The notes beneath the pieces were generated by a model. The model was not told the DNA's origin. It searched no databases and saw nothing but the letters and a program-made list of their open reading frames with translations. 64,000 bases of DNA from Candidatus Omnitrophota bacterium (lineage in GTDB: Bacteria; Omnitrophota; Gorgyraeia; Duberdicusellales; Duberdicusellaceae), in NCBI GenBank assembly GCA_016932855.1, contig JAFGCB010000023.1:4825-68824 (forward strand), in the 5' to 3' direction. Below are positions 13,709 to 53,000 of this stretch, one piece after another (position 1 is the stretch's first letter; each line of letters starts with the position of its first letter). A program made the translations under genes and the position numbers.

Positions 13709-13714
13709 CGACGA

Positions 13715-13749: not shown

Positions 13750-13763
13750 ATGTCGGAGTTGAA

Positions 13764-13788: not shown

Positions 13789-14060
13789 CTAACATAAACT
13801 GACTTAGAAAATAAATTAATCATCCTCTCTATGGTTCTCTTCCTTGTCTTTCCGCCTTTAAATTGTCTTTCTCGTCTAAGGGCCTTCGATCGCGAATCAA
13901 ACTCCTCATAATAGACTAACTCTAGAGGCCGCCTATCCTTAGTAGATAAAACCTGGCCCTTTGAATGCCTATAAAGACGCTGGGTTAAATTGTTTGTATG
14001 ACCGTAATATTTCATGCCATCAGCGCATTGTAAAATATATAAATAATAAATTGATTTCAT
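13782..14060 (-). CDS. Small GIY-YIG nuclease-domain protein
   Basis: SIYYLYILQCADGMKYYGHTNNLTQRLYRH matches the GIY..YIG..R..H core, followed by a conserved E. 92 aa. Starts 26 nt after the giant-gene stop. Confidence 0.85.
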   Translation of the reverse strand: MKSIYYLYILQCADGMKYYGHTNNLTQRLYRHSKGQVLSTKDRRPLELVYYEEFDSRSKALRRERQFKGGKTRKRTIERMINLFSKSVYVSP

Positions 14061-23000: not shown

Positions 23001-26000
23001 TATCCACAAACAAGCTTAAATATGACTTCAACCGCGCTTAAATAAGCTTTGGATTCTTTCCCCGGGTTAACAATGTGTTTAATAAACTGTATCTTACTCT
23101 CTAGGATTTCAATTAATACTAAAGTATGCTCTCCAGATTCAGAATTTATATTTAAATTATTAATTATGTAATTTAAATAGTGCTCGCCACCTGAACCACT
23201 ATAATCTAATAAAAGATCTCTTAAAATACCTCTTTGGGTTTTTACTCCATTACCAAAAATAGCAACTGGTGTAGTTAAATCAAAAAATTCTTGCTCTCCT
23301 ATATCATCACTAGCTATGTCCGGCATGCCCTCTTCGTTGGTCCAAAGCATTGCTTTCTCTAACATAGACTTACCAAGATAGTACTTTCTTCTTTTACCTC
23401 TAACATTTAAAGACAACCGTTTCTTTACAAGAGGAATCCCTTTTATCATTAAATCAGGACCAAACCGTGCCCTAAGCTCCTCTAAAGATATTGTTAAACT
23501 TGCACAGTTAAAAACAATTTCTTCAGTTATTGGTTGGTGCACTGTAATGCGCGAAAACTTCTTTGGGCTTCCTTGCTGACCAAATTCACTAGCATTTTCT
23601 GAAAGTTCATTCCTTTGCTTATACTCAAGCAATATAACCTCTGACCCATTAACAGCAAAATTCGCCTCTAATAAGCTCCCTTCTTTAAGGCTAACTGATA
23701 CAGGATAAACTTTACAGAAATTAATAAGATTCCAAGTCTTATTGTGCCTTACGGGAAGATGTCTAACTCTTACCCGCTTAGCCCCAGCCTCTTTTAACAA
23801 CTTAAACATCTTTTTGCTTTTAATGTTAACTGTGCCTGGATTCTCTCTGCTGATAGTCATAAGTAGTTTCCATTCGTTAGAACTATTGGTTGTATATTCA
23901 ACGCGAATAAAATCATCGAAAGTTGTAAAATCAGAATCTACCCCAAGAGAAACTACTCTTATCGGCCAGCCATCTATTAACCAAACAAGCAAACGAGCGT
24001 TACTAAATGGTGTAAAGAAACCTTCATCTCTACCAGCATCTATAAGAAATTTTCCGTTTGAATCAGTTGGCACTCCGGCAACAAACCCAGTCCAAGCTAT
24101 GCGTCGTAAATAAGAAATACTGCTAAAATCTAATTTATAGATGTTTCCTTCGCGATCATACACTTCAAAAGCAATCTCTAACCTTGGATTGCTTCGATCA
24201 AAGGCAGACTTTGACATAGCCCTTAAAAGTGGGGGTTGACCATTGTCTTTTTTCGCTAAGAATAACCGAACTGGCCCAGGAGATTGATGATACACTCCGT
24301 AGTTATGATTAAAAAGCCAAACGGTACTGACTGAAGTCGACTTACTAGCAACCGTAGTTGATTTTCCTTCAAGTACCAATAAATCATGTTCTCCAAAAAA
24401 TTTATTTAAGTAAAACTTTAACAACGCCACTGCTTCTTTTTTCTTTTTTCCTGCATATTGATAATCCCGCTGATGATAAAGAATATTTCCCTTCATGTCT
24501 AGAATTAAATGGTGCCCCCTGGCAACCAAATCTTGTCGCTTAGATACCTCGCCTCTTCTTCCTATTCCGGAATAATTAGAACGTGGACGATTATGATGGG
24601 TATCTTTTAAAACCTTAATGAAATTTCTCTCCCAAGGTTTAACGTCAAACTTATCAGATAGAATATTCTTGGCGCTTGTCGTAACTATCGGACTAGAAGC
24701 TTTCTCGCTTTTATCGCTAAATAATTTCGCTGTAAGTTTTTCATAATCATCCGGCCTAGGATTTACAAAATGCCAATTCATAACAGCTAAGATATCATCT
24801 GCCTGCTCTTCGGTAGCACCAACAAATACTACACCCAACGTATCCCCGATCTCTAAGTCGCGTAATGCTGAAAAGCCTTGCCTTTCAATATTTTTAAATA
24901 CAATCTCTGAAGATTCAGGAAAGACTGTCTTACACGACAGAAGAGTTATTTTTATACCCCATTTTATTTTTATCCTTTCTGATAAGTAACCTAAGCCCTG
25001 GGATATGCAGAAACGTTCATCGGTTAAATCCCTTTCCACTGTAATCTGCCTAAATTCTTGCTGCTCTAAATCTAAAGTTACAAAAGTGTTTGAATCACTT
25101 TTGTAACTTTGTGCCAGGGGCGAGCTGATTGGCTTGCCATCAACGAAATAAATAGAAGGGTCCCTTTTTTCCAATCTATTAAGCACTTCGCCTGCCCTTT
25201 TGACTACAGATTGGGGCAAATCTCCACTTAATCTCCATATCTTATTAAAAGACGCTAATCTCTCTATTTTTGCTGTACAAAAGCAATTACCTATATCTTC
25301 CAACACAGCAAGCGAAAATAGGATAACTTCAGAGCTCGTATCATCCAAAGCTTTACGGTAGAATACATTTCTTACTCTACTCAGGTAAATTTGCCTATCT
25401 GCATCCGGCAATTTATTATAAACATTCCATATAACCTGATATAACTTTAACCTTCTTTGACTTGTAAGTATAGCTTTGCCGTAATGGAATTTTTCATGCG
25501 AAACTTCTATGCCTTCAGCTACCGTTAACAATAACTCTAGGGCTTGCCGGCAAGGATGCTCTAAAGAATCATTAAGGTAAAGATCTACTACCTCCCATTT
25601 AGACTTTTCTAAAGAAGGCAGAAATACTTTCCCCATAACTTCAGTAAAATCACCTAATTCTGTCTGTATGCTGGTTAGCTTAAAGACCAAAGACTCTGAA
25701 ACCTTTTGGCCCAAAAAACTATCAACTATTATTCCTAACCAGGCAACAAAATCTTTTCTTAAAGAGCTGTCTATTGGAAGCTGCTCTATTTTATTGGACA
25801 AAGAAATGGCTAACTTGCAGAAATATAGCTTTTCAACAAGGTTAACATCTTTCTTTCCGGAATTAGATTTTATGCCGGAAAAAACCTTATTTAGTTCCGG
25901 CTCATCTTGAGCAATAATCACAGCTTCTTTCATACACATAAAAGACAAACGAATAAAAAAGTTCTTAAAATCTACTGCTTTTAGTAGGTGCTCTATTAAA

Positions 26001-29000
26001 CTTAACCTCTCCTCCTGCGATTTAGCCATAGAGCCTGCTACCTGCAAGCATCTATCGGCCATAGATAAATCACTTGCTGAATACGCTTTATCGGAATAAA
26101 CAAAAGCTATTAGTTTATCCGCTACCTTGTCTCTGTATATCTTCTCTAATTCTAATCCCTTCAACACCTTAAGAGCCTTAATTCTTATGAGCCTATCTGC
26201 TGGTTTATATGCATACTTGTTAAATCCCAATATACCTAAACTTCCTGCTATGGCCTCAAAACAGCCGAACAATATTTCCCTACTATAACCAGTAAGCCAC
26301 CCTATAAGCCTGGCTTCCTTAAAAGCAGGTAATAATGAGTCTTGAATAACAAGCAGGCTCAATTCTCCTAAAATGGCTACTCCGGATAAAACAATAAAAG
26401 TTTTACATATGATTTGCGTGAGCCTATCCAGCGATTGAATAAAACGGGAACGAATTAAGAGGCTTGAGCCCTTATCAAGATAATCTAAATAAAAAAGCAT
26501 TTTGGCGTAATTCGTCGCTCTCTTTACCACCGCTTCTTTACGGTAAACTTTATTACCTAAATTATTTGTAATTGAATTGACTATTCTTTCTATGTTTCCA
26601 TCGTAAATCACAGACAGTCTGTTTAAACCGAGCTTGTTTACATACCCCTTAAGCGTAGAATCGGAAGTTTTCTCATTCGCAGTCCAACCCGTCCTTAAAA
26701 TATCAACAAGGGTAAAAAAGTTTGCAAGAACCTCGAGTATGTTTTGGTTTTTAAGATACGGGAGCTCTCTTTTTACATACTCACTATTCGAACTAAGTAG
26801 CCCCGCTAATTGATCTTTTCCGTCTAAAGCATTATTCTTCTTGAGCAGGGGCGAGCTGATTGGTTTATCCTCGAGTGAGAAAATAAAAGCGTCCCCTTTT
26901 ACTGAACTTAATTTAATCGGGCTTGAAAACTTACCTTCGGAACTTACCTGTGCTTGCTCAATTGTAACCTCTGTCAATAATACAAGCTCACCGAATTCCT
27001 TGAATCCCCTCAAGGAACCGATATCGCGGAGCTGGCCAAAATGATTATCCTTTTCGTCTTTTGCTCTCCGGTTAAATTTAGTCCTGGGTTCAAAAACAAG
27101 AAAAATCACATTATTGCCGATAAGCCTTGCATAACCCTTGAAAGACCTTTTGGCAAAATAAAGACGCTTAACATCTGTGCCCCAAGCTGGCGGAATTTTA
27201 TGCCTGTAGTGCGGTTTATCAGGGCCTTCAATAAAACTTTTTACCTTTACTTCAATCTCTCTAATCGGAAATTTCTCTAGGACTTTCGCTTCAGTCCAAT
27301 TGCTATCAATAAACCAAACCTTGTATTCCTGCCTAATAGGCTGCTTTCGAGTTATTTCTTTTTTAGCCTTATACGAAGTCTCTAGATTTTTCTTATAATC
27401 CAGCAATGTCTTGTTATTTGCAATGTGATAGTTAAGCTTAAGCCAATTACTTATCACCTCAAACACAGTCTTAGAAAAAATATCAGCAACCTCCTCAACT
27501 TCTATCTCTTTCCCAAGCGCCTGGATTAAGCTCGTATAAGAAGGTGCTTCGCTGATTATCTCCTGCATTTTATCCTCAGTTATCCTTTTTAGCTTAGCTT
27601 TGACTTTCGCCTGCGCAGCCTTTTCTTCCCTGCTTACTACATGAATAACTGCGCTTTTGGGACTGCCTATGACAAATTCTGGCTTCTTTATAGTGGGCAT
27701 TATTGAAGCAGGCTTTACCTTAATAGACGACTTTATTAAAGGTCCCTCGCAACTTTTATTTTTACGAAGCATAAAAATTCTGATGAGCACTATTCCTGCG
27801 GCAAGGCCGCCGATTGATAAAATAAGTATTGGCCAAGTCTTAGAATCAGCGTGCTTCTCAGGCCCTTTCTCTTCCTGCATTAACCTAGCTTGTTCTGCTA
27901 CTAATGGTATTCTGTCCAACAAAATCGCCAACGATCCGATCGCTTGAGCAGGATTTTCTTTAAAAAGGTTGATATATTCCTTCATATATGAATACCTAAT
28001 ACAAAGTAAACATCCCTGCTCAGCGGTCATAACCATTCTCTCCCCGTCTATAACAAGACTCTGGTCATTGACAATCACAACCGCGAGGAGTTTCTTCAAA
28101 GATGCAGGCTTAGCTATAAGAATTGCCTCGGAGAGTAATTCAATCGGGTTTAGCTCTTTTACATATTGCTGATGTTCCTGGAACATTTGCTTAAGCACCG
28201 GACCGATAGGAAGACCTGTTGTCTTGCCGAAATAATTTTCCTTTTTGCTTCCTAAAAGCCAGTAATGATTCTCAATGCTGGAATCAGGCAAAATAATAAG
28301 TTGCTTAGCCTTTTTTACTGCGCCATCCTTACTCACCTGAATATTCAAAGTAGAAGGCGCAAGCAGGATAAGTGCTGATACTATGGTCAAAACCCTTGTA
28401 CAGCCTTTAATAGACGGGAAATGTTTGGCTCTAAACGAAGAGAGCGGCGAGCTGATCCCGTTATTAGCGGATAGTAGATTATCGTTATGAGCTTCACTGA
28501 ACGCTAAACGTCCTTCAACAAGTTTATGATTATCTACAGAAGGACCCTGAGTATTCCCGAAGGGCTCTTCGCTAACCGCTAAAGAAGCCACCGGCGAGCT
28601 TAAACCTTTATCGTCGTGCGTACCGCTCGTCCCGTGTCCCGAGACTTCGGGATTTACGGGACGTACTGCGTACCGTGAAGGTAAGCCGATAAAGGCAATT
28701 TTTCCACCAAGCCAAACAAATAATCCTAAGCCCGTAAGAAGACCGGGTAGTGGAATACAGCCGTACATACCGGACAAAAACCATTCCACAAGAGGACCAA
28801 AGCTAAGGGCAAATAAAATAGTGACTCCTAAAAAGCCAACAGTTTTATTCAATATCCTTGGATGGCTTAAGCTTTCCCAGATTAATCCGCCTATCCCAAC
28901 CGCCGTAGCTATATCAGCTATGTTTATAGAATAAGGAGAATTATATATATTCTTAAATATCTCCAGGTAATCTACCTGATAACCCAACGAAAGTGTTATC

Positions 29001-32000
29001 AAATGCGCAGTAAGCCCGCCTACAAGCAATCCGAATATCGCTTTTGCCTTGCCCTGGCCGATAAATTCCTTAACCTTATTCACCGTCCAAGCTGAAATAA
29101 TTAATACCCCGGCTGTAGCCAGAACATCGGCCAAGCTGATATGGCCTGAAAAAATATGGGTATTTATCTCAAGCCAGTTCTTTGCTAGTCCAAAATGCGG
29201 TTTGAATAAAGCTACCGTTAATTTTGTAATTAAATCAACACTTGCAACGACTGCAGCTATTACTCCGCCCTTTCTTATCCATCCATTGCTTCCAACCGGA
29301 CTGCTATCTATTGAGCTTGTCACCGGACTGCTGGATCTAGACTTAACTGCGATAGAAAAGTCGGTTTGTTTTTGACCTTCTTGAAAATAAGTAACTCCGC
29401 TATGAAACTCATCTTTGGACCAGAAGATTGCGTCGCCTTCGCCTTCATTGTATATAAATAGGCCGCCGTCTTTATTAGTGTTGCGAATAATCTTCCGGAC
29501 GAGCCCCTGATTAAGCTGAGGCTCTTTTCTAAAGAAATCCGTCAAACCGCGCATGGAAATAATGTCGTATTTTTCTTTAAAAACAAGGGTCCATTGCTCT
29601 TTACCAAATAAATCAACATATCTGTATTCAAAGCTAAAATCAATGCTTTGGTGTTTCCTGTTCTCTTTAAAAAGCCGGGCCTCTTGAAGATGCCACAAAG
29701 ATACATCATGCCCGATTACATCAACTTTCCAGTTTATCTTATCGATATCACCTTCTTTAAGTAGTGAATTTTTAATTACCCTCTCAAAGAATGAAAACTC
29801 ATAAAATTTAATTTTTCTATCATTTCCCACCCCGATAATTTTCAGCGATATATTAAAATCATTCCGTTCTTTCTTTATTTTTATTAGTTGCCCGATAAAT
29901 TTTTCAAGTTTCTTATCAGTTCTTGCCTCAATAGGCCAGGCATCACCGGACCAGCCTTTATTTAGTGCTAACCCCAGCCTTAAACCCAATAAAGTTAGCT
30001 CTCTCTCAATTTCTTCACCAGAAGGCTGCATAAGAAAATCCCTATATTCCTGCAAGTTAGCTTTTTGAGAATTCTCAGCTTTTAGTAACAGATAAGGCAG
30101 AAAATGGACTTCTGAAAACTCAGGAAAATATTCCACGCTTCTTCGAACATTGCCTGAATCTACAAGATACTCCATAATCTCTCTGGCTGTCTTTTCTTCT
30201 TCTGTAAGCGTCCTGCCTAAGTCAGCCCATAATATGTCCTTACCTAGCGGCGAGCTTATACGGCACGGATATCTGTAAACTATCGTAGCGGCGATGATAT
30301 TTTCGGATATGATTAGCTTGCCTATAGCAATTTTTTCTGACGGACTCTGCAAGACAACAGCAAAACGAGCCCCCGGTCTTGCCTGCCTCAGTAATACCAT
30401 TCTTAAATAGTGGTTTAAATCACTCTCTGATGGACAGCAATCAGAAAGAGTAAACCAATTCCTGGGACGACCCTTAAGTTCAAAGTTCCTAGAAGAAATA
30501 ATGCCGATAGAGTCGATTTTTCCCTCACGATACAATGAAAGCACTTTTCTAACAACCTCATCCAGACTTAAATTACATACGGGCTTACCCTGTTCCCCAT
30601 ACAATTTCAACGGCGAGCTTACCCCTTTTCCTAGAGTTACAAAAGTGTTTGAATCACTTTTGTAACTTTGTGCCAGGGGCGAGCTGATTGGCTTGCCATC
30701 AACGAAATAAATATAAGCGTCCCCATCTGTTACATAACTGCTTGAATAAGTTATGTAACAGATAGCGCACATAGTCAACCTTCCAGCAAACTTTGTTAAT
30801 GCGGTCTTAAGCGGGCTACTTACACTAATGCCTGTAATATCTACAATAACAGTAGCCATACCTATCTCCGTATCAGGTAAAACATCTTGATGCGGCTTTG
30901 TATAGCTAACGGTAAAACCGAAACGTATCTTGTCCTTGGCATACCCCGGAGTGGTACCGTAAAAAGCCGCTAACATCGCTATTTGACCACGTAACTCTGA
31001 ATCCAGGAAATCTCTGAAAAGCAGTGGATTATCTTCAACCTCAAAAACAAGCGGTGGTTCCGGCTCAAATAAATCATCTTTATACCTGTAGATAATCCGC
31101 ATTACATGGAACGGTTTTCTGCGATAGGAATCAAATAATTCTTGGACTATTCTTCCAAATGTAAAATCTGCTTCTGGAATACCGCTTTTACCACGCAGCT
31201 TCATAGGAGAGCTAGCGAAGGAATCTTTTAAGTATTTCGGCTTTAGCGGCTCCTCAGACCTACTAAGTGACGAGCTGATTGGCTTGCCATCAACGAAATA
31301 AATAGAAGCGTCCCCTTTTTTAAGCGAAATTCCGGTATCTATCTTTCTGCAGACAGCCCAGGAACTTGCATAACTCAATGAAGCTTGTCCTTGTGAAATT
31401 AATAGGCCCTCCCAGGAATTACTACTTAAGCCTAGCCTAGCCAGGTGCGACAGCTGAAAATACTTCTTAACAACAGCAACATCGAATTTGATGCCGGTCA
31501 TAAGCATAAACCCTTGCTCAGAGACATCAGTGTTAAGCTTGCTCCAAAACTTCTCCTCTTCAGCCATTACGCCCAGCCAGCCGGGGAAACTGACAAACGT
31601 CAAATCAACTTCTTCATCATCTCTAACAGCTTCCCGGCAAAAATAATCTAAGGGACGTAAGGCCAAATAAATCTGTCTGTTTGAACTTACTCTGACCGTC
31701 AAAACGCAAGTTTCTGTTTTCGTAAGCTTGTCTTTTATATTGGACGGTGTCTCAATAAGCTCAAAACCATAACCACTGGAAATAAGCGCGGGGAAATTCT
31801 GCCAGTCTTTACATATAGGGTCTACTAAAATAATCTTCTCAAGACTAGGAAACAAATTGACGATTATCCGCAAGTAATCTTTTCTCGGACCGTGCGCTAC
31901 TGACAAGGCGAGCTTGGGCTGAAACTTCTCTTTCTCAAAGAATCCCTGCAAGGATTGGTACCAGGGAAAATCAGAAAAGAAGTCCCAAATATAACCGCTA

Positions 32001-35000: not shown

Positions 35001-38000
35001 ACTCTTACAAAGTTGCCCTTTTCAATGCATAATTGCAATATACCCATTGGAGTATTGGCCGGTTGCAAGACCGAAGATTGATCGATATCCGATAAATTCG
35101 TAAGAAAAATTCGAAGTTTACTCTTAGCTTCCGCCAATTCTAGTTTCTTAAAAATATAACTGAATGCCCTGCTTTCTAAGGCATGAATCATGAAAGGCGC
35201 TTTAAAAATAAAAGTTGATTGTCTAAAGGGGGCTCTTTCGTATTTCTTTGCCGGGCTTGAGGCTTTTTCCACCCGTAAAAATAATTGGCCGTTTACCGTC
35301 ATCTCCAGCGAGGAAAGCCCGTCTAAAACAAAAAGAGGCGATCTATAAAGGTCGCAAAAATAAACCCTTGCTTTCAGCTGGTTCTCTAACTTATAGGCTC
35401 TTAGTATATAACCTTTGTTATATACCTCTTCGCGCATGGCAAATAAAAAATCTCTTATCTCGATTAGATGAGTGTTTTTGTCATCCAGGTTAGCGAGAAA
35501 ATACTCGGGCTGATCCTCGGGGAACTTGACAGCCTCGAGGGTCTTTACAAAACGCATATCGCTAGACTCTTTCTCGATGTCTTTTATCTTCTTCCAGTAT
35601 TTTTCTACAAGATCAGGATTTGCGTCTATTAAGGCCTGAGTATACAGTGCCCCCGCGATGCCCAATTCGTCTTTAAGCGTATGAATTAGCCTTTTTTCTT
35701 CGGAACTGTATAAATAATCCGGATAAGAATGTAAATCATATTCCAACGGCCAGTCAAATATCTTGAAATCAAAAGGCAATACCGGCAAAACCTCACTTGC
35801 TTCATCCCAGCCCATTTCAATAACTACCGGAAAACTGGAAGAAGTCGTCTTCTGAACTAAACGCATTCCTTCTGTTTTGATGGCTATATCGACCTTTCTA
35901 TTAAAATACAAACTTCTAAGTTTTAATATACGATGAGAAAGATAAACCCGCTGCCAGTAATCCGGGGTGTTGAACAAATTAGTAAATAAATTCAAGAAAT
36001 CCAGGATTAAGGATTTAAAATCCGCTAAAGAAATATCTTCTTTAATAAATGATTTCCTTAAACCTGGTGTTAATTCTATGGGAAACGTCTGATTAAAAGC
36101 AGAACTTACTTTATATCTCCTGAAACCCCGCCCAATCGGGCTTGACAAAGTAGGAGAAAAGAGGTCGGGGCGCGCCCCGTAAATACCGATTTCTCGGGAA
36201 ACGAGGCAAGCTGGAGCACCTGCAACCCTGCCTGGCCGGCAGGCAGGCACGTAGAGGCTACTCCGGGGAATTACGCGCCCGAACCAAATAAAGTCAAAAA
36301 TAGAGGCAGCCCTCACCAACCAAGATAAAGACTGCCTCGGGACGTGGTGAAACTTTACGTCCCTGCTTACAGGGTAAATGAAAGGAAATACATTTGAGCT
36401 TACGCCAAGCTTGGCTAGCCGGCTCCCTAAAGGTGAGGAATTCTGCCCAGCAGGAAAAATAAGTATTTGGACTCCCGGAATTAAAGACTCTCCTGCCTCC
36501 CAAAATGTGTGTTTAATACCCAAAATATATCTATCCGGGGATTGCAAGATTCTCCAATCATGAGAAAGTGAATTATAATCAGGCAGATTCTCAAATGCAT
36601 TTAAAGCAACTTTCTGTGCGATTTTGTCTTTTCCTTGAAGCTTTAAAGGATTTGGCAGAAAATCACCGATCAAAGTTTTTTCTTTTACAACAAATCGGCC
36701 AATACCTAAAAAGGTTCCACTGGCCAGCAAATCCTTGTCTCCATCAAAAGAAGCAAGTGAAACTGTATAACGGCCGGGCTTAGTCTCCTCTCTTGCCCCG
36801 TATTCACTAAAGATACGTCCTAATCTAATTCCAAGCATCGATGCTTCTTCAAGTTCCGCAAGGCAAGGCGTCACTACGGTCAACTCTTCTTGCAAGCCTT
36901 GTCTATCCCAAATTAATTTAAGCATCCTGAAGCTTTTACTCTCAGGATGTAAGGGGTCAAGCCGGGCATATTCAATAGAGGAAAACCCTCCGTCATTTCC
37001 CATGGGCCTTATCGGGCTCGAGGACTCAGAAGTTTTACCATTGAGCATAAATCTTATATACAAGACTCCGGTCTTAAAAGTATCGCCGGGATTTTTAAAG
37101 TAATCGTAAAGATAAAAATCTCCTCTTTTAATAACCTCTTTAGGGCTGTTAACCTTGGTATAGCTCTGCTCCCTTAATGCTTCTCCTAAAACCGCGCCCC
37201 AGATATGGGCCTTTTGGACAAAGCCGTCAGGTAACTCAATTCTTATTCTCTTACCTAGCTTAGCCCAATAAAATCGGAATGGATTTTTAATCAAAAATGT
37301 GTCTAGTCCGAAACATTCCAGCCCTTTGGGAAAAGAACCCCTGTTTACCATAAAAGGCAAGTTAAATAAAGTCCTCACCTTAGCTTCTTTCTTGCTGCAC
37401 TCTGAAAGCGATATGTTAGGCTTATCTTTCCTGGAGTTAGCAATTATCTCGCCGTCGTTTACAGGATAGAAAAATCCGGAGGTTACCTTCTCGGAAAGAG
37501 GGCTTGAAGAAACAGCCTCTGCCTGACTAAGATATAATTTATACTTTTCTCTGATTTCTTGTGCTTTAGGGTGTTTAGCCCAAAGCATCCTAAGACGGTT
37601 TTCTACTTCCGGATCCGAGATGTCGAAATTTTCTAACATTACACTGCGGAAATACTTGACCACTTCGGGGCATGAAAGCTTATTTATTTTCCTGGAAGCC
37701 GTGCTTATTTTTCTATCCGCTGAAGCACCTATGTGGATAAGAGCGTCTTCTAGCGAACTTGGAAAGTACCAATCTCCGGCATCGTAGTGTCCACCCTTGC
37801 CCGAAACTTCACAAAAGTTATTCATTGTAAAAGCACTAAGCACAATACCTAAATCCCAGAACGAAAGCTTAGCTTCAACTACATAGTCGATTATTGTCTT
37901 TGCCTCAGCTACAGAGAATGAGCTTCTCTGTTTTAAAAAAGATAAGGCTTTACTTGATGGTATAATAGCAGCCTGAAGGACTTTCCTGCTTTTGGTATTC

Positions 38001-41000
38001 TTATAGCTAACTCCTAACCTTTTGATTAATACGGGAAAATTAAGCAAAATTTTTGTTTCCGGGCAAATACCTTCAAATACTATATACTCTTCTGCTATTC
38101 GATAAGCAGCTAAAAATCTTCTTTTCTCTTTAAAGGCGCCTGATAGACTGCTCATTGGTGTAGTAAACAAAATCCCTAAGAATCTTAAAAACATTATTCC
38201 TAATATTTTTAATTTAGAAAAAGATGATATTTTTTCCAAATCAGCAATATTAATATGGCTGGCCTTCTCTCTTATCAGAGAATCAAAATATTTTTTTGAT
38301 GCACCCAGTTTAAAAATCCTGTTACATAAAGATACATAGCTTTGTCGCATGCTGCTCAACCAAAATGCAAATACTGAGCGCTTTATCTTAACCACAATAC
38401 CCTCGCCCTCAAGAAGCCAAGCCGAACATTCCCAGCCTTTGCCTATAAATACAAGTGGCTTTTTAGAGGTAATCTTTAAAGGCGAAGAGGTAATATCATT
38501 GGCTGAAGACAGCCGTGATAATCTTATCGCATAAGTGCGTATATTGCTATTGTCCGGGGCAAGCATGTAGGCTTGCTGTGAATACTTTATCATCGGAGCA
38601 AAAAATACAGGATCGTTTGTTAAAACTAAGGCATGAGAAAATCCTCCTGATATTCCATATAACAAGTGACCTAGAATGCGGCCCAATGCTTTTCGATCCC
38701 TGTGTATTCCAAAACCAGCATCTACTAGCACCTTCTCGTCCACAGCTGTTTCGGCATCCCCGCTTAACCCTAAAAATTTATGCACATCTTCCCTGTGAAT
38801 GCTAAAATCCAAAATCTCAATCTTTGCATTGGCCAACAGACGGCCTAAAAATACATGGGGACTACCTTTCGGATTCGCAAAGTCTATAGAGGCTAAGCTG
38901 GAGCCATTGTTATACCCAAGTCGATCTAAGAGAAAATAGCCGAATAAATGACTCATAGCGCAGTGAGATAAGAAATGTTTAGTAAGCCATTTCCCTCCTA
39001 TCTCCATACCCCTTCCAAAAAGCTTGGCATCCTCATCTTCCAAGATGTTTAATAAAATCCCTAAATTATCGGCAAAAATGCTCTTAGCTTCCGGACTCTC
39101 GTCTTCAAAATAGTCTATTCCGCATCTGTAAGTACTGGCTTCGACAACGCTTGCTATATGGCCGTCTAAGCTATAATCCATAATAAAGGAATCGATAATT
39201 CCCAAGATTAAACCTGATTCATAGATTCTTTTTTTGTATTTTTTTATAAGCTCGGCGGGATTCTGATCAACGACAATTAATTTGGTAGGGCTGCAAAGAG
39301 CCAACGATATATTACTGACTACCGGCGGGCCGTTAATGACTCCTCTTTTAACAAACCAGTTATTTAAAACTGTATGTATATTTATAAATCTTAAAATTCC
39401 CCTATTGCTGCAAAATACCGCCTGCCTTACAGGTTCTCCTTTAAGTAGGCCGGAAAATAAGCCAGGGCTCTGTAAATTCAGACTCATCTTCTTAAACACT
39501 ATATCCGGCACAGGTAAGGGAGAATTTGACTGGTAAGGAATCTCACTTATTAGAATCTCCTGCGGCTTCTGTTTAAACCGGAAATGAAAACCGCAAAATT
39601 GCACATGTTCGTCTCTTACGGCTAGAGACCTTTCTATGGGCACAATCCGGATTACCTGAACAGGGATAGATGCTGTTGGCGAAGCGGATTGACTGTTTTG
39701 GATATCTTCCAGAAGAGAAATTACTGCATTAAATTTGTCATTATAAGATTTTGCTTTCTCCCGGCTGATATTGATTAATCTAGCCCAGGCCTGTATGCCG
39801 TTTTGAACTTTTTCCTTCTCCTCTAAATCTGTGATTGATTCAATCTTTCCTAAATTAGGAATCACCTCTTCTTTAAAAGGAATATGGTCAAGACATAACA
39901 CATGCCTAATTGAAAAAATCTCTCTTGTAATATCTCTGTAATCCTTAATAATACCTCGCTCAATTAAGCTACGTAAAGTCGTTAAAGCAGTCTCTACCTG
40001 CTCTTCTAGCTGTGTAATTATTCGATCTTGCGCTGGAGAAGAAAAGGTTGGGGATTCGGATTCTAGACTACCAGAAGACCAGCGGATAACAACCTCCCGA
40101 AAAAGAGCACGCAGAGCCAGAATCGCATCACGACGACTTACGAAATTAAGGGTATTTATAGCCTCCATGAAATTCTTATTTCTGGCTTGAGATTCACTAA
40201 GTCTATCAATTATCATTAGAATACGGTCTCTGCCGGAGCCTTTAAATTTCATAAAAGAACTAACTCTGGCTGATCCCATGATGATTTCAATGGCTGCCTT
40301 AATATCATCTCTATTGCCGGGTAAATTTATCAATTCATCCCCTAGTTCGTCTATATCTTTTATCCCGGAATACTTCTGCCGATAGGCCTGTTCTCCATCC
40401 CAGGGAGCAGACGTCCGTAAATCGTAGTCCCCAAGATTCTTTTGCGGAAAAAAGAGCAACGTCTCTTTCATCGACGGTATTATTCTTCTAAAGAATTGGT
40501 CGTAATCTTCTCCCTGACTGGTTACAATTTGACCTATCCGCCCAAGCCAATTATCCCTCCATATCACTTTATCAGCTGGAGAACTGGCAACCGGGGTTAA
40601 TTGATACAAAACACCCCGCTTTGTTCCCAGCGAACAAGGCACTGAAACAAACTTACAAGAAGTAGGCAAAACTTTACCGCCCTCAATAACCCTTTGTATC
40701 ATGACATACAAGAAAGGAATCTGGTCTGAATAGAAAATTTCTCCTGTTTTCGGGTTTCTTCCTCCCATAAATTCCGGCACGCTGAAAAGAATCGTCCCCT
40801 CGGCTCTATTTTTAACCCTGGCTATTCCTTCGACAATCTTGCCGATCTTATCAGGCCGCCAGGTAGGAGGAGCTTTAGAGGAAAGCTGGGCGTTAAGTTG
40901 ACTCGGAGTTATGACATCCGTAGCAACTACATGCGTAAATGCGCCTTTAAGAGTGTTTTGAATTTCGAATCTTGAAAAATCTCCCTCAATAAGATGAAAA

Positions 41001-44000
41001 CTGCCGCCTGCCGCCGAGATAGAAGATTTAAGCTCGCTATATCTTAGCTTCAATGCTGCTATGACTTCGGGTTTTTTCTCAACGCTTACGGCATTCGCTC
41101 CGAAAAGTGCAGCGATAAAAGAAAAACCGCCAAATAAGCCGCTTCCTATATCAAGTAAAGTATCCTTGGGTTTTATTCCCATGCTCTGCACAGTGTATCT
41201 GCCTCTTTCAAAAAGAAGCCCCTCATAGAAATGGCCGCCACCGTCAAATACCAGATCTTTCTTTTGCCATTCTTTCATCCAAGCCGCACCGGAAGGGATA
41301 TGCTGCACGAATACCCGGCGTATCTCTTCTTGAGCAGCCCTGCTGAGAGGCGAAGAACTTGCACCCGAAGTGCCCCATGCCGGTTCGTCTAACCCACCCG
41401 GTCTATAAGCCCTGCCGGTAAGTTCATCGATAGCGTAACCTTGACTTATTAAATCCTGCCGGGTCTGCGTGGATACGTATCTTTCAAATGGCCTTATCTT
41501 ATCAATATTATCAATCGGCGGCGGATTCCTATAAATACGGTCATCTCTATTCCTGTAAAACTCTTTCTCTATTTCCTTAAAACTTAAAGGAATACCTGCT
41601 TTAGCTAAATCCTCTTTGGTAAAAATCGGCTCATTAACTCCTATGGCCTTAAAGCAGTTTTCGCTTTCCGGATGTAATCCGGCTAAGACCAAGGCTGCGT
41701 ACTGGGTAAGATAAAGACGCGTTTCCGGATATTGCAGGGCCAAAGACCAGTAATCAGGGGGTGAAACTCCTACACGCAGAGGCCCAAGCACTTCTCCGGC
41801 TGCCCTCCTAATTACCGCCGGATCAAACATACGCAAGATATTTAAAGGATCATCATATACAGCGGTAACGCCCCTGGATATCTCCTCCTTAACAAGATTT
41901 CTTGCCCTATTAAGGTCCTCTTCTCCGTCTGCCTCCAGAATTCCGCGCACAAAACGATTGCTGGAAACTTTTATCAGCGCTTCATCCTCGTAGAGAAACC
42001 CGTCATAGAGAAAAGTCATAGGCATTTTAATTCTGTTCTTTGACTTAGGATGCTTATTGAACCTTTCATACAAATTAGGATGCAATAAAGGATTTAATAA
42101 TATATCCCTATCCGTAAGAAGAAGACCTCTGCCTATTTTTTGTACCGGCTGGTTAAGAAGAAGCACTTCGTAGCTGCTGTTTTTGAATCTAATGCGGCCT
42201 TCTAATAAAACCTCAAAGGACCCCCCTGAGTCCGAAGTCACCTTAACGGATTCTTTGGTGTATAATAGCGGCTTTAAGGAGCGGTTAGCAAGCTCCTTAA
42301 GCAATTCATCTAATGTATCAAGGGGCATCGATAAATGCAGATTCATTCCGACTTTAATCTCGGGGAATTCCTGAACTACGACCTGTATAATATTTGCAAG
42401 ATATTTTATCGGTAAGGTATCTACGATTTGCCCGTCGCTATTCATATGTCTATTTCTATGGAAAGCATCGCCGGTAAAACTTAAGATTATAAAAACCGGC
42501 TTTTTGCCCCTGGTTTTTCGCTGTAGGTTAGTTTGCCAGATTTCAGATATATTATCTCTTGCATCATCTAATGTTTTTGCCCAGAAACCGCTTGTGCCCA
42601 TGGTCAGAAAATCCGTTTTCGTTTCCAAAATAGCCAACTTGATAAGATCTTTTAAAAGCCAAGGGTCACCGCCGGTAAGAAGAGGCGGAATTCCTGCCTC
42701 ATAAGCCCAATCCAGGGCTCCCAACAACTCAGCCTTGCTTAAAACACCTCTTCTATACAAAAATCCGAGTTGACAATGCCGGCAGGGAAGAACGCAGCGG
42801 CCGGTAAGAACTATTACAAATGGCTCAAAATTGCCGAACATTGAATCTTTAAATCTATTGTTGAGTAAACCGATTATCTTTAATCTCTTCCTATCTAACC
42901 GGCTGTCAATGAAAGAATAGACGTACTTTTCTTTGGCGACTACGCGTTCTTTTTCATGCAAGTATTCCTGCCGGTTCCAGAGCTGATAATTATGCTGGAT
43001 GAGCTTGACTAAAGGATAGACTTGGGCCGCCTCGCAACCTGCGAGATATTCGCCAGCTTGAACAAACATCTCAAACCCTTCCGCGTTATCGATAATATGC
43101 TGGCCGATATAAACAAATCTCTGAAAATCGGAATCGATTTCGGCGATAGGGATCAACCATCGTAAATGAAAAGATCCCTCAAAACTTATCGAATCGATGA
43201 ATTCCAACTGCTTAGATCTGGGGATTTCTTCCCGCAAAAAGTTTACTGCATATAATAGCAAGGCTAAATTAGTAAAGGCTGGCTCTAATAAATCATCCTG
43301 CCCAATATTATGATTGACCATATCATTGAAAATTAAAAACGCCGAAGAAAAAACCCTATTCTTTTCAGAAAGGTATTGGTCTAAAGGATCCTGAATGGGT
43401 CCGGGTAATATTTCCTTTCCGGAAGCCCCGCTTGTACTTTTTGCTTTAATAATGGGTTCTACTGTTTGACCGGACTGGTAAAGTTTAATAAGCTCTCTTA
43501 AGCCTAAAGCCTTCTCACGCGGCTTTCCCATCTGCTTTCTAAGCTCTTGCTTTTTGTGTTCCTTTCTCTGAGTTCTAAGCTTCATCTGTTTCTGGGCTCT
43601 TCTTTTTGCCGCCTGCTTATTCTTCTTCTTAGCCGGGGAGCTTAAGGCCGTATCCTGGAAAATGGAAGATAGTGAGCTTTCTGCCTTAATCATACGGGAA
43701 GTTATTATTGTCTTTCTTATAAACTTTTTTATCTCTCTTAAGCTTGTTACTGCTTCCTGATGGTTCGGTATTACTATAATATCCTGGCCGCTGTTTATAA
43801 GCCTGGCGACCATTAACATTTCTTCGCTCTCTCTTCTTAGATACAGAAGCCCAAGACTTTTCGGACCTTTATAGGGCTGTAAAAACAACCTGCCGCTTGC
43901 TTTTTCAATCTTATTTTCTATCCGCTGTGTTGAAGAATAAAAAACAAAGCAGTCTCTTCCGCCTTCGCTTTTCAGACTGACTCCTCTTATCGAAAGTATG

Positions 44001-47000
44001 GAATTAGTAATAAAATCTGCATGCCGATTTTTTTTAAGAGGACTAGAAGATAAATTCCGTATTTGAGGAAGAATATTATTGAAGGAAAGTCTATTTTTAT
44101 CAAAAACATATATCCTCGTTATCGCACTTAAAGGAACGTCTTCTGCGGCCCTGTTGCAATCATCATACCAACCGGTTATTCTTCGCTTATCAAGCTTAAC
44201 GACAACAGATATAAAGTTTTCCGTTGGGTATTCTCCTTCCGGCTCAAAGGCATAGGGTAAAGCTTTTATCGGAGAAGGATCAGTATCTATAAACGGCCTT
44301 ACTGCATGGGCAGTTACCCTTGAAAGAAGTAATCCTACTTTGGCAACCTCAAGTAAGTCTTTAATCGTTATCCTCATTCCCCGGTATCTTATATCTTGGC
44401 CTGTTTCCATTGAAGCCACAAGGCCTTTTCTTACCTTAAGTGAATTGGGCGGATTAAAATATTCCATATCCCATAAAAGTCTTCTTAATTCTTTCTCATC
44501 AGAAAAAATGCTGTCTTTTAATAATACTGAGGCTGATTTTAAAGCCTTTCTTCTTTTTCCCAAAGGAGAGCTGCCAGATGATGAAGCGGGGATTTCCGGA
44601 TATCGATATGAAAGATGGCTGGGGTTTCTATTCCGGTCGTATTTTGTAGCCTTAACCTCATTCTTTATAGCTATTAAAACTAAATCCGGTGCCCTATCCA
44701 CAAAGAAAATTCCCTGCGTTACTACGCCCGGGGTTATCTTAAGCATCCGCGCTGTCTTGGCAGGATTTATTATCATCTTCCTTGAGAAATCGGCATCGAC
44801 AATAATCCTTCTTTCACGGTCGCCGGGCCTGAATATAGAGCTATCATCGTTTCTTCGTATAGACACCTTACCTGCCCCCATAATCTTTAACATAAACTTA
44901 ACCAGATAAAAATAAGGCTGTTTTACCTCAAAGGGCAAAGAAAACTTGCCGAGAAATTCTTTCGACTTTTTACTTTCAGCGATAATAATTATCTGCCCTT
45001 CATCCTTTACCGCCCGCATATTTGCCAATTCATCGGTAAGGGCTCCTCCGCCGCCTTTGATTGCGTAGCCGTGACTGTCAACTTCATCTGCTCCGTCTAC
45101 GATAATATCTATGCCCAAACCTTTCGCTTTAAGCTCTTCAAGCTCCATTATTTCAAATCCAAGGTTTCCAAGTAATTCTCTGGTCCTTGGCGAAGAAGAA
45201 ATAACAATGATACTGTCCTTTATATCGCCGCAGAATATGTCTAATTCTTCAATAAAATGATTCCAGACATTTGTCCCGCTTCCCGCACCTAAGATCAATT
45301 TCTCGTTTAAATTCTTCTTTTTTAGGGCGGCCTCAAAGACGAGCTCAGCGGCATACTGCGAGACAAGGCGTTTCTCCTGCTCATAGTCTGAGAATTTTAA
45401 AACCCTCTTTGTTCTCTGAAAAACACTTGTTGCGTCCAAGGGCGATGAAAAAGCCTGAAGAATTATGACATCTTTATTTACTTTGCGAATATAACTTTCG
45501 GGGTAAAGACGGCGGGTTGGAGTATCTGTAAGAAAAGAAGATAAAGCGGCCCGGACACGGCTGAGGGACCATCCAGCCACGGAAGAGGTTACCCTCGGGG
45601 AATGACCGCGTCCGAACCGATTCAATACTATATTAAGATTGTTTCTTAGAAAATTAGGCAAGGAATATTTAAAGAAGAGGCCCGGGAGCGCTGGAGTACC
45701 ACCAGCCACGGTGAGGCCACTCCGGGGAAAAACGCTCCCGAACCAATCTAATACTATTTTAAAACTATTATTAAAAAAAGCAAAAGGAAGAATGACTAGG
45801 GCAGGAAGGGCGAAAGGGATAGAAGAATCAATATTAATTTGAGGTGGACTGTTTATTGATAAAGAAAGCCACTCGGAAACCTGAGCAAGACTTGCTGCCG
45901 TAAGTCCAGTGCCTATCCGGTTGCCTCTGTTATGCAACATTTTTGTTTGAAACAAAAGTGTTGCATTAAAATCGCCGCCCAGAGGAGAACTGCCGGAATT
46001 ATCTTCCGTCGGCAAGAGATAATCCTCAAGCTCAGGCCAGTCTTTTAAACAATGTTCAAAGAAATCTACAAATCGATTGCTTTCCATTCTCTCTCCGAAG
46101 GGCCCAAGCCAAGATTTTTCCAGTAAATACTGAAAATAGGCGCCGTCAACATAACCTCTTCTTTTACTGCCTATCTCCTTATCTATACCTAATAATCTAA
46201 AAGTATTTCTTACATCGCCTCTTACGGCAATATCATGCAATAAAACCATAAGATAAGCGTTGATGCTGTCAATCTTTACTGATCTTTTCTTGTTAAGAAA
46301 TTCGGATATTTTTTCAGTAAATGCAGTATTGTCAAACAGGAAAAATAAAGGCCTTAGCAGAAGCTCAGACTCTGATAAAGCCTTCAAAATATGCGGATAG
46401 AAGTGGTACAAAGCCATAAAACAGGCGTATTCATAAGGCACTAAGTCGGCAAGAAGAACCGCCTGGATATGGTGGGTGTCACTGGCTTCATCATAACGTA
46501 TGGAAGGCTTATTTCTTTCAATCGAATCGATGACGATATTTGTCTTAAGCTCTTTCTTCAACTTCGGCCGCCTGGGGAAGTTCTTAACTCTTGTATCCGA
46601 TTGCAGGAACAAATTCCTCGAAAGAAAATCAAAAATTCCCTCAAGCCGTGCCTTAAGCTGACCCTGCGCAAACTCGCCAAGGCTTTTCAGGTTTTGATTA
46701 TCCTTAAACTGAAATCCCTCTTCTGTAATAATAGCTTCGCCCAAATCAACCGATTCAAATTTAACTACTTTTTCGAAGACAGCAAATTCTTTATCCTCAT
46801 AAACTCTATCAATTATCACAAAAGCCGTCCGGTCGATTCCATCGATGACTATCGTTATCGTGGGAGTAAAAATAATATCCGGGGTATGCTTAAAAACGCT
46901 GAGCATTGACGGCCAGCCGGTCTGTTTATCTAATTCAATCGAGACGGTGGGATTAATTATGCCTCCGTGGGGCTGGGAAAAATGACAGACTTCTATGGGA

Positions 47001-50000: not shown

Positions 50001-53000
50001 TTTTTATTCTGAAAATATCCTATGGCTTCGGCTACGCGTATAAAAAAATAATTCTCGGCAAAAAACGACGGTAAATCCCCCCAGCTTAAACCCCCAAAAA
50101 AACCGATAAATCCGTTCCATAACCGCCTATCAGGAATATCATGCATGAGAGGCTCGGGGTCCATCCCGCTCATTAGCTCTTTAAACAAGCGGCCCAAATT
50201 CCTGACCACGTCTCTAGGATATATATTGTCTATAACAATGGTTTCGATCATCGCAGGTAAATACTCAGTTACTATCTTTTTAGCAAAAGAGCCCGGCTCT
50301 GAACACATTATTAACGGTGGCTCTCCCATAGTATCATATGGCCAAACAGTTGCTTGACGGAAGTCCACAATCTCTTCCATTGACAGCAAAACCTTTTCAA
50401 AAGAAATAAGATTCTTAACATGTTTATAGCCTTTTTCTCTTATCTGCGTCTGGGTTATGTGATTGGATAAAGATATGAAAAGTGAATTCGCCTTTTCAGG
50501 ATCATGGCCTTGATAAGGAGAGATGAAGGCTGCCTGATAGAAAATAGCCCACCAGAGATTAGGAGAACCTCGTACGCTATTATGGCGGCGATAATATTCC
50601 ATGAATGTACGCAAGAAAGCATCATCTCTCGAATGTATGCCAAAAACTGTCTCAATTTGGGACTTAACAAATAAATTCCTGTAATCCTGCATGAATTTCG
50701 CAAGAAGCTTAGCAGCTACAACCTTATCTACCAAAAAGCTAAAAACTTCTTTTACAACCTCAAGATTTTCCGCACTTATAACCCCACCCTCTAAAATAAG
50801 GCTAACCTCATTAAGAGGCCCTAAAAGAATTGCAAACTCAGGCTCGTGAAAATAAAGGTAATCTCTGTGCTCGGGGTTTAAAAAATCCTCTTTAAGTATT
50901 TTCCTGGCAAGGAACCACTTATTGTTTTTTAGATTATGCAAAATTTTTGCCGCTTTTGTGATAAACTCTTCATTTCTATTATCAACGCTCTCCCGCAAGA
51001 CCGTAAGCCTTCCCCTCTGAAGACTTTCAACTATTGCCCTGCTTTGAACCATCCGCCTATCCAAAAATTTCCCGCTAAGCCTTAAAAGGCCTTTTGTCTG
51101 ATCTAACCGCCCAAGGCTTATCAATTCCCGGGCGTATTTAATAGTAGTCCTGGCCAGGCGTTTGTGCCTTATCCTTACCCTCTTTAGCTGCTTAACCAAG
51201 GAATCCAAGTCTTTTTCAATCGGCCCCGTTATGAACTGAATATCCCTAATATGGGTAAAAACTTCTTGGCAATCGCTAAGCCAGTTTATTTCCTTAAGTT
51301 CGCTGTCAATCTGATGGTCTACTGTTCTAAAAGCCTGCCATATACTTTGATAGGAAGCATATATATAGGTAAGCACCCAGGTGCCCCAAGGCTTAATCCA
51401 TTTGTAGCGCATCTGGCGCACTCGATACTGCCCGCTCCTTACGGCCACGCCCAAAAATCTAAATCTTTCCGAATCCCGGCTAACTTCAACTCTGTCATTT
51501 TCAGCATCAAGAGAAAATATTGCTGAAACCAATAGAGAATTGGTTACTGTTGCCGGAATAGCGTTAAGGCTTTTGTTCTCTTTAGCGGCAGTAATAAGGG
51601 CCGGTAGATTTTCCGGCTTAAGGGCTCTTTCCATTTGAACAACGACTTTATCGGGAATGGCTTTTTTATAACACTCGTCGTCTTCAATCCTATCTAGCTC
51701 ATCTTGAATTTTCCCGGCTAGGTTCTGAAGCATATTTCCTATTCTCCGCTGGGATTTTCCTCTTCTTTGCAGATAAGTCCGCTTAAAATCCAGGTAATAA
51801 ATCTTTAAGTTCCATTCCATAAGCAGTTCCTCAAGACGGCCAAGGCAGGCCAGACGTTTTAATGTTGAAACCGGGCTGGAAGATAACCCAGGCGTATCCA
51901 AGGAAGCCGGGCTTGAGAAGATAAAATTATTACCGAAACCGGATAAAGCCCTTCCGCTCATAAGCCCCACAAGGCTTAACTCTCTTATAAGCAACCCATA
52001 ACCGTAATCCAGGCTTCTATCCCATGTATCAAATAATTGACGTGTCCTCTCTTTTCCTTGGCTAAAAATCCTAAATCCATAACGGCTGACAATCCCGGTA
52101 TAAGTCTCAGGAAATGTCAGGACGTATTCTATATCTTCAAAAGGGTATCCCACGATAAACCCGCAAGCTTTAACCAAGTCAGGATTATTTACATCATCTT
52201 CATTTTCATCACACCACTGAAGAATATTGGTAATATTGTCTATCCCTTCGGGTTTATCGCCATTAGAGATTAAATCAAAGATTGAACTCCTAAGCCCTGA
52301 ATCGCTAATTCCGCTTTCCAACAAAAGATTACCTTCCTGCTTAAATTTCTCCGTAAGGCCTGGCAGAAAAACCGTAAATGAAGGAAGATAAAACAATAAC
52401 TCCAAATCTTTCTGCTCGTTTTGCAAAAGACCATGTTCATCGGTTAAAGGCGTTATATCAGGATCGTTATTTTTTTCATCCACGCACTGTATGTATCCCG
52501 GCTTTATGCCTAAGAAGACCGGAAGAACATCAGGATAAAGAATTAGCTGTTTTCTTTCTCTGTCAAGGCGGTTAAAGACTTGTTTTATGCTGTTCTGCCT
52601 CGACTGCGATATGCCCAGACTAATCCTCAACTCCTCCAGGTTTATTGGGCTGGAAGTCTTCGACTTGGGACTGCTTCCAGCCACAGGAAGGTTATTACGG
52701 GAAAAACCTCTGCCAAAACGATATGGCATAGCTTGCTTAAGAGGAGAAGAAGCTGTCTTCTGGATATCCTCTGAGGATAGAGATGATCCGGAATCAGGGG
52801 CAGGATTTTTTCTTCTGCCGGAAATTAGCTTTTGTATTAAATAAATAATACCCAAGGGCAAAGGCAAGAAAGAAAGGTCTGCTTTTGATGCCCGGCTAGA
52901 CTGTATGCTTTCACTTATAGCTTCTATGGTTTGTTTAAGAAATATACCGATCTGGCCGAGGCCTATAGCCTGAATTATATGGGCAGTAAGCATTGCGAAG

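Follow-up and report, generated by a model that had tools for sequence, protein, structure and literature searches.

Bacterial genes that reach tens of thousands of codons have come to light only recently, and whether their transcripts or proteins are used whole or cut has been called an open question (10.1101/2023.11.21.568195). Two kinds of described element come closest to what we report from such a gene. The first is the pyrBI attenuator, in which a terminator hairpin with a U-tract lies within an open reading frame (ORF) and is blocked by a close ribosome; the principle is that a closely following ribosome keeps intrinsic-terminator hairpins from forming (PMC5021804). The second is the group of Rickettsia palindromic elements (RPE), in-frame palindromic repeats that add a tolerated peptide segment to genes (PMC10969869). 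Here a 64,000-nucleotide stretch from a Candidatus Omnitrophota bacterium (GenBank assembly GCA_016932855.1, contig JAFGCB010000023.1, positions 4,825 to 68,824; hereafter the window) was analyzed, in which a GC-rich repeat element recurs in frame within a giant gene on the minus strand. What recurs is a structured nucleic-acid signal and not an ordinary coding repeat, its family stands well above chance, and the best reading of this family is a small, lineage-specific set of structured RNA signals. With regard to function, we tentatively favor putative hairpins of the intrinsic-terminator or attenuator type, which would be kept translatable in short, discardable spacers of a polyprotein-like giant gene.

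The family comprises three GC-rich copies (c1, c2, and c3) and one decayed copy (c4) that was found by profile, all four within one ORF and in a single orientation:

14087-64000 and beyond the window end, minus strand: host ORF, at least 16,637 codons (more than 50 kb)
36163-36285, minus strand: c1, with outer stem and internal loop as in c2 and c3, -60.7 kcal/mol, z -2.9
45547-45619, minus strand: c2, 73-nt hairpin with an architecture like that of c3
45679-45744, minus strand: c3, hairpin of 66 nt whose outer stem (GGUUCGGGAGCGUU / AGCGCUCCCGGGCC) has 14 bp
52666-52722, minus strand: c4, the decayed fourth copy, 48% GC

The best reading orientation for c1, c2, and c3 was the minus strand, on which they share the core GGTTCGGNNGCG-N3-4-TTCCCCGRRG (3 matches, 0 expected). 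The core GGTTCGGNNGCGNNNTTCCCCGGAG, searched on the same strand with up to 3 mismatches, also matched three times (0.00 expected from 100 shuffles). A profile hidden Markov model (HMM) built from the copies scored c1-c3 at 53-60 bits (E-values 1e-15 to 8e-18) and retrieved c4 with an E-value of 2e-4, and a covariance model gave 93 bits for c3, 84 for c2, 49 for c1, and 10.9 for c4. With its filters off and both strands of the window searched, the covariance model found nothing besides c1-c3 above 12.5 bits. The three copies that a first-pass annotation of the window had pointed out were hereby recovered by core match, profile, and covariance model alike, with corrected limits: the hairpins of c2 and c3 are real and narrower than the coordinates given at that time, and c1 is longer. 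Element length ranges from about 65 to 125 bases.

The GC content of c1-c3 is 66-70%, against a mean of about 40% for the host gene, and the three copies account for 3 of only 9 islands in the window with at least 62% GC (60-nt islands). The strong contrast in composition that had been remarked on is therefore real, the host gene itself being moderately AT-rich and not extremely so. Copies c1-c3 are free of stop codons only in the frame of the giant minus-strand ORF and contain stops in the other frames, which agrees with the in-frame location and the encoded peptides that had been reported for them. Among the 40-codon windows of the entire ORF, c1 has the lowest codon-usage score, and the c2/c3 window is one of the ten lowest.

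Each GC-rich copy was found to fold into a long hairpin when the RNA was folded, as the first-pass annotation had proposed. In c2 and c3 an outer stem of 14-15 bp (GGUUCGG... paired with ...CCGGGCC) is followed by an asymmetric internal loop carrying an invariant UUCCCC and by an inner stem of 5-6 bp, which differs between the copies and pairs in both (GGAGU/ACUCC in c3, GAGGG/CCCUC in c2). The interior of c3 consists of the internal loop UUUCCCC, the inner stem GGAGUG/UACUCC, and an apical stem with the loop GUGGCU. Across copies the internal UUCCCC and the apical GUGGCU are kept and the stems vary. Both hairpins fold better on the sense strand by 5.6-6 kcal/mol (c3: -38.3 sense versus -32.3 antisense; c2: -39.1 versus -33.5), because their 4-5 G.U pairs turn into A.C mismatches on the opposite strand, where there is 1 such pair (5 versus 1 in c3). 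This greater stability of c2 and c3 on the sense strand, together with an outer stem that stays paired through two double-sided changes, upholds the earlier suggestion of a structured RNA motif.

In a 12-bp alignment of the outer stem of the three copies 97% of the cells are paired. Two pairs are altered on both sides (G-C to A-U and C-G to A-U), two further pairs are altered by wobble, U.G pairs occur in every copy, and sliding the register lowers the pairing to 25-50%. Copies c3 and c2 make up a tandem duplication of 126 nt (42 codons), in which c2 is the downstream half; the duplicated unit includes about 20 nt of AT-rich upstream flank, and the two units are 67% identical. The tandem arrangement of two copies noticed earlier is this duplication, and the alignment of the units indicates that c2 and c3 arose by local 126-nt tandem duplication rather than by transposition. 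After divergence of the units to 67% identity the stems of c2 and c3 are still fully paired, by way of compensatory and wobble changes.

The same alignment bears on the level at which the element is constrained. Relative to c3, c2 has one extra base ahead of the invariant TTCCCCG and two more behind it, so that the shared TTCCCCG is read in different frames in the two copies, which therefore indicates a nucleotide rather than a peptide constraint. The peptide repeat recognized at first pass is indeed encoded, but its C-terminal VAG in c1 stems from nucleotides that do not align with those encoding VAG in c2 and c3 according to the covariance model, and is hence not homologous to them. We considered it very unlikely that the peptide itself is what is selected, i.e., that a linear motif (R/W)FG(R/S)x4Rx2-3LxVAG acts, for example, in processing or sorting and the hairpins arise incidentally. 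Its best support comes from c4, which encodes RFGRGFSRNNLPVAGSSP within an SSP-bounded module (amino acids 3751-3776) and retains RFGRG...VAG without the GC-rich stem; the outer stem of c4 is gone, and what can still pair is an apical hairpin, CUUCC-UGUGGCU-GGAAG. In RFGRG, c2 and c4 use different codons at four of the five positions, all synonymous and without any replacement, which hints at some peptide constraint, at least for c4. Yet by reading, most of the codon differences that separate c3 from c1 and from c2 change the amino acid, a 14-bp stem with compensatory changes would not be expected by accident, codon usage scores lower here than anywhere else in the gene, and the motif is shared by no protein in 5.8 billion clusters and belongs to no Pfam family. 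Most of the evidence thus points to a constraint on the element that acts mainly at the nucleotide level, and the encoded peptide (WFGxV..PR.. and its like) would be mostly a by-product of it.

Copy c1 is longer than c2 and c3 because of two insertions of 14 nt and 36 nt. The 14-nt insertion is apical and extends the palindrome CCUGCCUGCC..GGCAGG, and the 36-nt insertion forms a third arm. The two palindromes that had been described as lying next to this copy, GGGGCGCGCCCC (36167-36178) and CCTGCCTGGCCGGCAGGCAGG (36227-36247), are real and turned out to be parts of it, GGGGCGCGCCCC being the 3' strand of the c1 outer stem and CCTGCCTGGCCGGCAGGCAGG its apical extension. Two similar sequences were observed elsewhere in the window. 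At 8251-8270, in the signal-peptide region of the ORF at 6034-8355, a 20-nt GC palindrome (CTTGCCTGCCGGCAGGCAGG) shares 19 of 20 bases with the apical palindrome of c1 in another reading frame (0 expected by chance). At 28611-28677 a 63% GC in-frame hairpin lies just upstream of an SSPV junction and folds better on the plus (antisense) strand (-39.8 versus -29.5 kcal/mol). The third arm of c1, taken in the opposite orientation, matches it at 22 of 27 nt, a likeness that may be fortuitous; several such matches were estimated to occur by chance in the window, and it was not used.

The copies c1-c3 are located in two spacers of the giant protein, which also hold three further hairpins:

36137-36439, minus strand: c1 spacer module with Ha, Hb, and c1, amino acids 9188-9286, bounded by SSPL and SSPI
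36303-36338, minus strand: Hb, perfect 15-bp hairpin with 4 G.U pairs, then TATTTTTGAC; directly upstream of c1
36339-36363, minus strand: Ha, 7-bp GC hairpin GGGACGU...ACGUCCC, abutting Hb
45440-45991, minus strand: c3/c2 spacer module, amino acids 6004-6185, with SSPL at both ends
45932-45966, minus strand: AT-rich, near-perfect 17-bp hairpin that opens the c3/c2 spacer, some 7 codons past SSPL

Hb is unrelated in sequence to c1 and folds at -24.0 kcal/mol on the sense strand versus -9.2 on the antisense strand. The host ORF encodes the Pfam domains ARMT1, RpiA, radical-SAM, LspA (signal peptidase II), HTH_8 (a Fis-type helix-turn-helix), HTH_17, HATPase, and LysM. Its protein contains 62 SSP tripeptides (4.5 expected), 58 of which have L, I, V, M, A, or F as the next residue (e.g., 45983-45991, 45440-45448, 36431-36439, and 36137-36145). 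The codons of SSP vary, with AGY and TCN serines mixed, and the tripeptide is absent from the ten remaining ORFs of the window (4,187 amino acids). Every Pfam/HMMER domain match falls between SSP sites; SSP followed by L/I/V/M/A/F was therefore considered a candidate polyprotein junction or cleavage motif. RNA structure showed no general enrichment around the SSP junctions.

The c3/c2 spacer sits between a conserved domain that ends at about amino acid 6000 and RpiA, which starts at about amino acid 6202. Neither spacer matched a Pfam family even at an E-value of 10. When 1,180 residues around c2/c3 were used as HMMER query against 1.84 billion representatives, no relative of the c2/c3 spacer was among the best 150 matches and only both flanking domains had relatives. 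The nearest giant-protein fragments, with 36-44% identity in one domain, have neither the spacer nor the SSP motif, and in distant giant fragments in which RpiA is embedded, it is immediately preceded by other domains. At 36-44% identity these distant proteins are too remote to be used as empty-site orthologs, and no close ortholog able to show an empty site was found in the protein searches. The copies thus lie in homolog-free spacers between conserved domains, in accordance with the tolerated linker regions that had been assumed for them.

A second in-frame repeat family was observed at the junctions, a cassette encoding GDASIYFVDGKPISSPL with seven copies. It is often followed by an AT-rich, near-perfect hairpin of 13-17 bp (TTTACAAAnnTG...CAnnTTTGTAAA), the arms of which vary compensatorily between copies; the hairpin at 45932-45966 is a member of this second hairpin family. 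The units at 25072-25164 and 30631-30723 share 97% nucleotide identity.

16048, 25111, 26842, 30670, 31261, 34300, and 48979: GDASIYFVDGKPISSPL cassette, 63-nt units
14451, 15318, 25074, 30633, 30725, 34263, and 45932: hairpins of the second family

The tentative functional reading draws on what surrounds the hairpins on the sense strand. Neither the sequences that follow the stems nor the strand or the kind of gene that hosts the elements had been part of the first-pass annotation:

36147-36162, minus strand: c1 tail, TCTTTTCTCCTACTTT, T-rich
45530-45546, minus strand: c2 tail, CTTTATCTTCTTTTCTT, T-rich
45664-45678, minus strand: c3 tail, TCTTCTTTAAATATT, 6 of 8 T, starting right at the stem end
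45770-45859, minus strand: pyrimidine tract directly upstream of c3, 77% Y (C 0.32, G 0.06)

The sequence following the hairpin reads TCTTCTTT in c3, CTTTATCTTCTTTT in c2, and TCTTTTCT in c1, where the next SSP junction lies 18 nt past the stem. After each of c1, c2, c3, and Hb, a tract with at least 5 T in 8 begins within 0-2 nt, compared with a background of 13% on this strand; the chance of four such tails is about 3e-4 if the hairpins are independent, an independence that is lost for c2 and c3 because they are duplicates of each other. By reading, no T-rich tails follow the elements on the plus strand. In a scan of all T-tail positions in the ORF, c2 (-38.6 kcal/mol) and c3 (-37.1 kcal/mol) were the strongest closed structures, the next reaching -29.4; c1 ranked fourth, with only part of it held by the 80-nt scan window, and Hb ninth. 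A terminator tool applied to 34-54 kb placed Hb first and the last arm of c1 second; each of these sites is in the c1 spacer and in sense orientation. Across the giant ORF, 33 closed structures of -20 kcal/mol or below with a T-rich tail were counted on the sense strand and 11 on the antisense strand (raw counts, uncorrected for base composition).

Two features of intrinsic terminators are therefore present, namely a GC-rich stem-loop in the sense RNA (-37 to -61 kcal/mol, with a GC-rich closing stem of 12-15 bp) and a U-tract directly 3' of it (5-6 T in 8 for c1, c2, c3, and Hb). Hb is unrelated to the repeat and shares its architecture and sense-strand specificity, which argues for a function common to the spacers over the spread of one repeat. 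With two tandem hairpin-plus-U units, each spacer resembles an intergenic termination region that has been kept open for translation. The 78-nt stretch just upstream of c3 is the most pyrimidine-rich and most C-over-G of the whole ORF and is unstructured (z +0.42); this best C-rich, G-poor tract was counted in favor of the terminator reading. The tract at 45770-45859 is either Rho-utilisation-like or simply codes for the hydrophobic segment IPFALPALVILPFAFF.

If the hairpins are terminators or attenuators, they would terminate or pause transcription by an RNA polymerase crossing the >50-kb gene whenever the lead ribosome lags behind, and under tight coupling to translation the ribosome would melt them and the polymerase would read through. 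This would give the giant gene a checkpoint, or expression that is graded from 5' to 3' along its length. A second possibility is that the hairpins serve as stable 3' ends of processed sub-transcripts. The layout of the spacers (a hairpin, a C-rich and G-poor tract, and two terminator-like units) looks formerly intergenic, and the spacers were probably intergenic regions that became absorbed into the ORF when neighboring genes fused.

Several observations weigh against this reading. A compact, unbranched hairpin (loop of 3-8 nt) at the end of a transcription unit is typical of intrinsic terminators; the hairpins found here are far longer and more branched, all sites are inside the ORF, c2 and c3 contain internal loops, and only Hb and the last arm of c1 passed a simple terminator scan. 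The T-tracts are interrupted by C, and the total number of terminator-like sites is not above that in shuffled sequences (24 versus 21). Copy c1 is equally stable on both strands and hence shows no strand preference, c2 and c3 do not count as independent cases, and the pyrimidine tract may just code for its hydrophobic segment. Covariation among three sequences is not significant, since 54 of 500 shuffles reached the same level, and the synonymous RFGRG codons of c2 and c4 hint that the peptide, too, is constrained. By reading, no ribosome-binding site with an in-frame start was seen downstream of the elements, a terminator within a stop-less ORF would yield non-stop mRNAs, and termination was deduced from the sequence alone.

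An intergenic origin would also be compatible with fossil terminators that were turned into linkers by gene fusion and are now decaying without any present role. The intergenic-like spacer layout exactly between conserved domains, the decayed and AT-enriched c4 lacking its outer stem, and a promoter-like site (TTCGCA-16-TGtCATAAT) 56 nt after c2 are in line with this, but promoter-like sites are not enriched (35 versus 41 in shuffles) and unrelated terminators would not form one sequence family. Because the stems of c2 and c3 have also remained fully paired in units of 67% identity, and hairpins of 66-70% GC persist in a gene of 40% GC, we regard the absence of any present role as doubtful.

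The terminator or attenuator reading can be extended to the whole gene as an 'operon in one reading frame', a proposal that goes well beyond the hairpins and that we consider improbable in this full form. About 60 modules would be cut or released at SSP(L/I/V/M/A) and the spacers would contain working RNA signals. The C-rich putative Rho-loading tract and the tandem hairpin-plus-U terminators would then be retained intergenic signals that halt transcription when translation lags or set downstream output, and the junk peptide would be a discardable by-product between two junction motifs.

To determine the distribution of the family, the window, additional sequence of the same organism, and public collections were searched. 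No extra copies were found in the 64-kb window, including its 14 kb of ordinary genes and intergenic DNA. Short contigs from SRR13394437 that are 100% identical to the window extend the sequence of the host organism by 2.9 kb, and these 2.9 kb contained no further copies. An exact-pattern scan gave 34 matches in 185,579 species genomes and 38 in JGI metagenomes; all were on high-GC contigs, matched in pattern only, and scored at most 16 bits, i.e., at chance level, and no true relative was among them. Word-indexed protein searches with the element region, the four-peptide alignment, and the GDASIYFVDGKPISSPL cassette returned no matches. Since no copies occur in these collections the family is known only from this window, where the elements align with no conserved domain; the combination of a single location with a conserved domain in homologs, named at first pass as the mark of an ordinary coding repeat, is therefore matched in its first half only, within the sequences searched.

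These results bear on the proposal that the elements are selfish palindromic mini-elements, similar to RPE, miniature inverted-repeat transposable elements (MITE), or mitochondrial GC clusters, which survived only in frame in a tolerant linker and have no host function. This is the rival that we take most seriously, though we judge it unlikely. A GC-rich palindromic family with foreign codon usage in an AT-richer gene, always in frame and in the same frame every time, has the appearance of such elements, as do the nested insertions in c1 and the recurrence of its apical 20-nt palindrome at 8251-8270 in another gene, and in-frame palindromic repeats are known from Rickettsia (PMC10969869). As in RPE and MITE, the insertions are in frame and encode a conserved peptide. 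The many dispersed copies of those families are absent, however, from the sequences searched, and the four found all share a single gene and orientation; by reading, the flanks of the elements contain no direct repeats that would represent target-site duplications; and c2 and c3 go back to a tandem duplication. Insertion of mobile mini-elements, the other explanation put forward at first pass, was accordingly not borne out by the sequences searched. Selfish spread also leaves the U-rich tails, the sense-strand G.U bias, and the unrelated Hb unexplained.

Other identities were tried and rejected. Rfam gave nothing at the gathering score, and on the elements only a chance-level HgcE match across c2 (13 bits, E-value 4.9). 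A tRNA/tmRNA scan yielded no matches, and group II intron domain V and RNA resembling that of the signal recognition particle were rejected by reading. Stimulators of -1 frameshifting follow an in-frame X XXY YYZ at a distance of 5-9 nt; by reading, the UUUUAAAA that precedes c3 is 13 nt off and in the wrong register, and no such site precedes c2 or c1. Integron attC sites have R'' (RYYYAAC) 5' and R' (GTTRRRY) 3' on the folded strand, and by reading the elements have the reverse, with GTTCGGG at the 5' end and an AAC-type sequence at the 3' end; the window has no integrase gene. Repetitive extragenic palindromes (REP) and bacterial interspersed mosaic elements are extragenic, and every copy described here is inside an ORF. 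A more general signal in single-stranded DNA, such as a REP-like site for a REP-associated tyrosine transposase (RAYT) or an IS200-type transposase, or a replication or recombination hairpin on an exposed G-rich lagging-strand template, is highly improbable in our view. Folding is specific to the G-rich minus strand, G.T wobble forms in DNA as well, and the unpaired loop sequences are conserved, all of which would suit it. The window encodes no transposase or RAYT, however, U/T-rich tails are not typical of such sites, the elements are not extragenic, and the attC boxes have the wrong orientation.

Some further observations were made in the window. Two arrays of heptanucleotides lie in the giant ORF, a perfect CGGTTTG x4.3 at 20929-20958 and CGTACCG x4.4 at 14278-14308, and gain or loss of a unit would shift the frame of the >50-kb gene. 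Right past the stop codon of the giant ORF, in the region 13711-14030, a small GIY-YIG-like ORF was seen by eye. The most stable local structure of the window is at 13711-13800 on the plus strand (-47 kcal/mol) and holds the tRNA T-arm-like GGTTCAACTCC; ARAGORN found no tRNA at 13711-13800. A transporter-like ORF at 8361-9980 ends in a 15-nt tandem repeat (8364-8462) with (E/G)ERR(K/G) units, ...RRREERRKEERRTIERRGEERRGEERRGEEKS.

GC-rich palindromes in AT-rich DNA, sometimes in frame or nested like the elements described here, are also known as the GC clusters or double-hairpin elements of fungal mitochondria. These belong to another domain of life, have many copies and documented mobility, and lack terminator-like tails. 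The terminator-like or stabilising-hairpin-like repeat families of bacteria have units of similar appearance (PMC10969869) but are intergenic, whereas the present elements are translated as in-frame parts of an ORF, and no similar sequence was found. From RPE the family differs in number and distribution, with dozens of copies in many unrelated genes and intergenic DNA there and four copies in one gene here, and in being GC-rich against an AT-richer host, with U-rich tails and with two copies in a tandem duplicate. The pyrBI attenuator acts in a 44-codon leader, whereas the elements occur in a >50-kb gene at several sites in tandem pairs that belong to one sequence family, with hairpins of 66-123 nt that are branched and with a putative role in regulation.

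The host gene fits the 'multi-enzyme' giant genes of Omnitrophota, with a length of tens of thousands of bases and a large set of unrelated enzyme domains, signal peptidase II and radical SAM among them (10.1101/2023.11.21.568195; 10.64898/2026.06.07.730766). Term searches of these two preprints did not turn up hairpins, terminators, palindromes, or an SSP junction motif. The polyprotein-like setting makes the elements useful for testing how giant genes are expressed, and the window provides testable landmarks for this purpose, i.e., the in-frame hairpins at 45.5-45.8 kb and 36.1-36.4 kb and the peptide junction motif at 58 domain boundaries. Should the hairpins end or pause transcription, they would be the first intergenic-type transcription signals kept in frame for giant-gene expression; should they not, they would add to the in-frame palindromic repeats of Rickettsia a counterpart in another bacterium. 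The element is best described as related to two known kinds, terminators of the attenuator type within an ORF and in-frame palindromic repeats.

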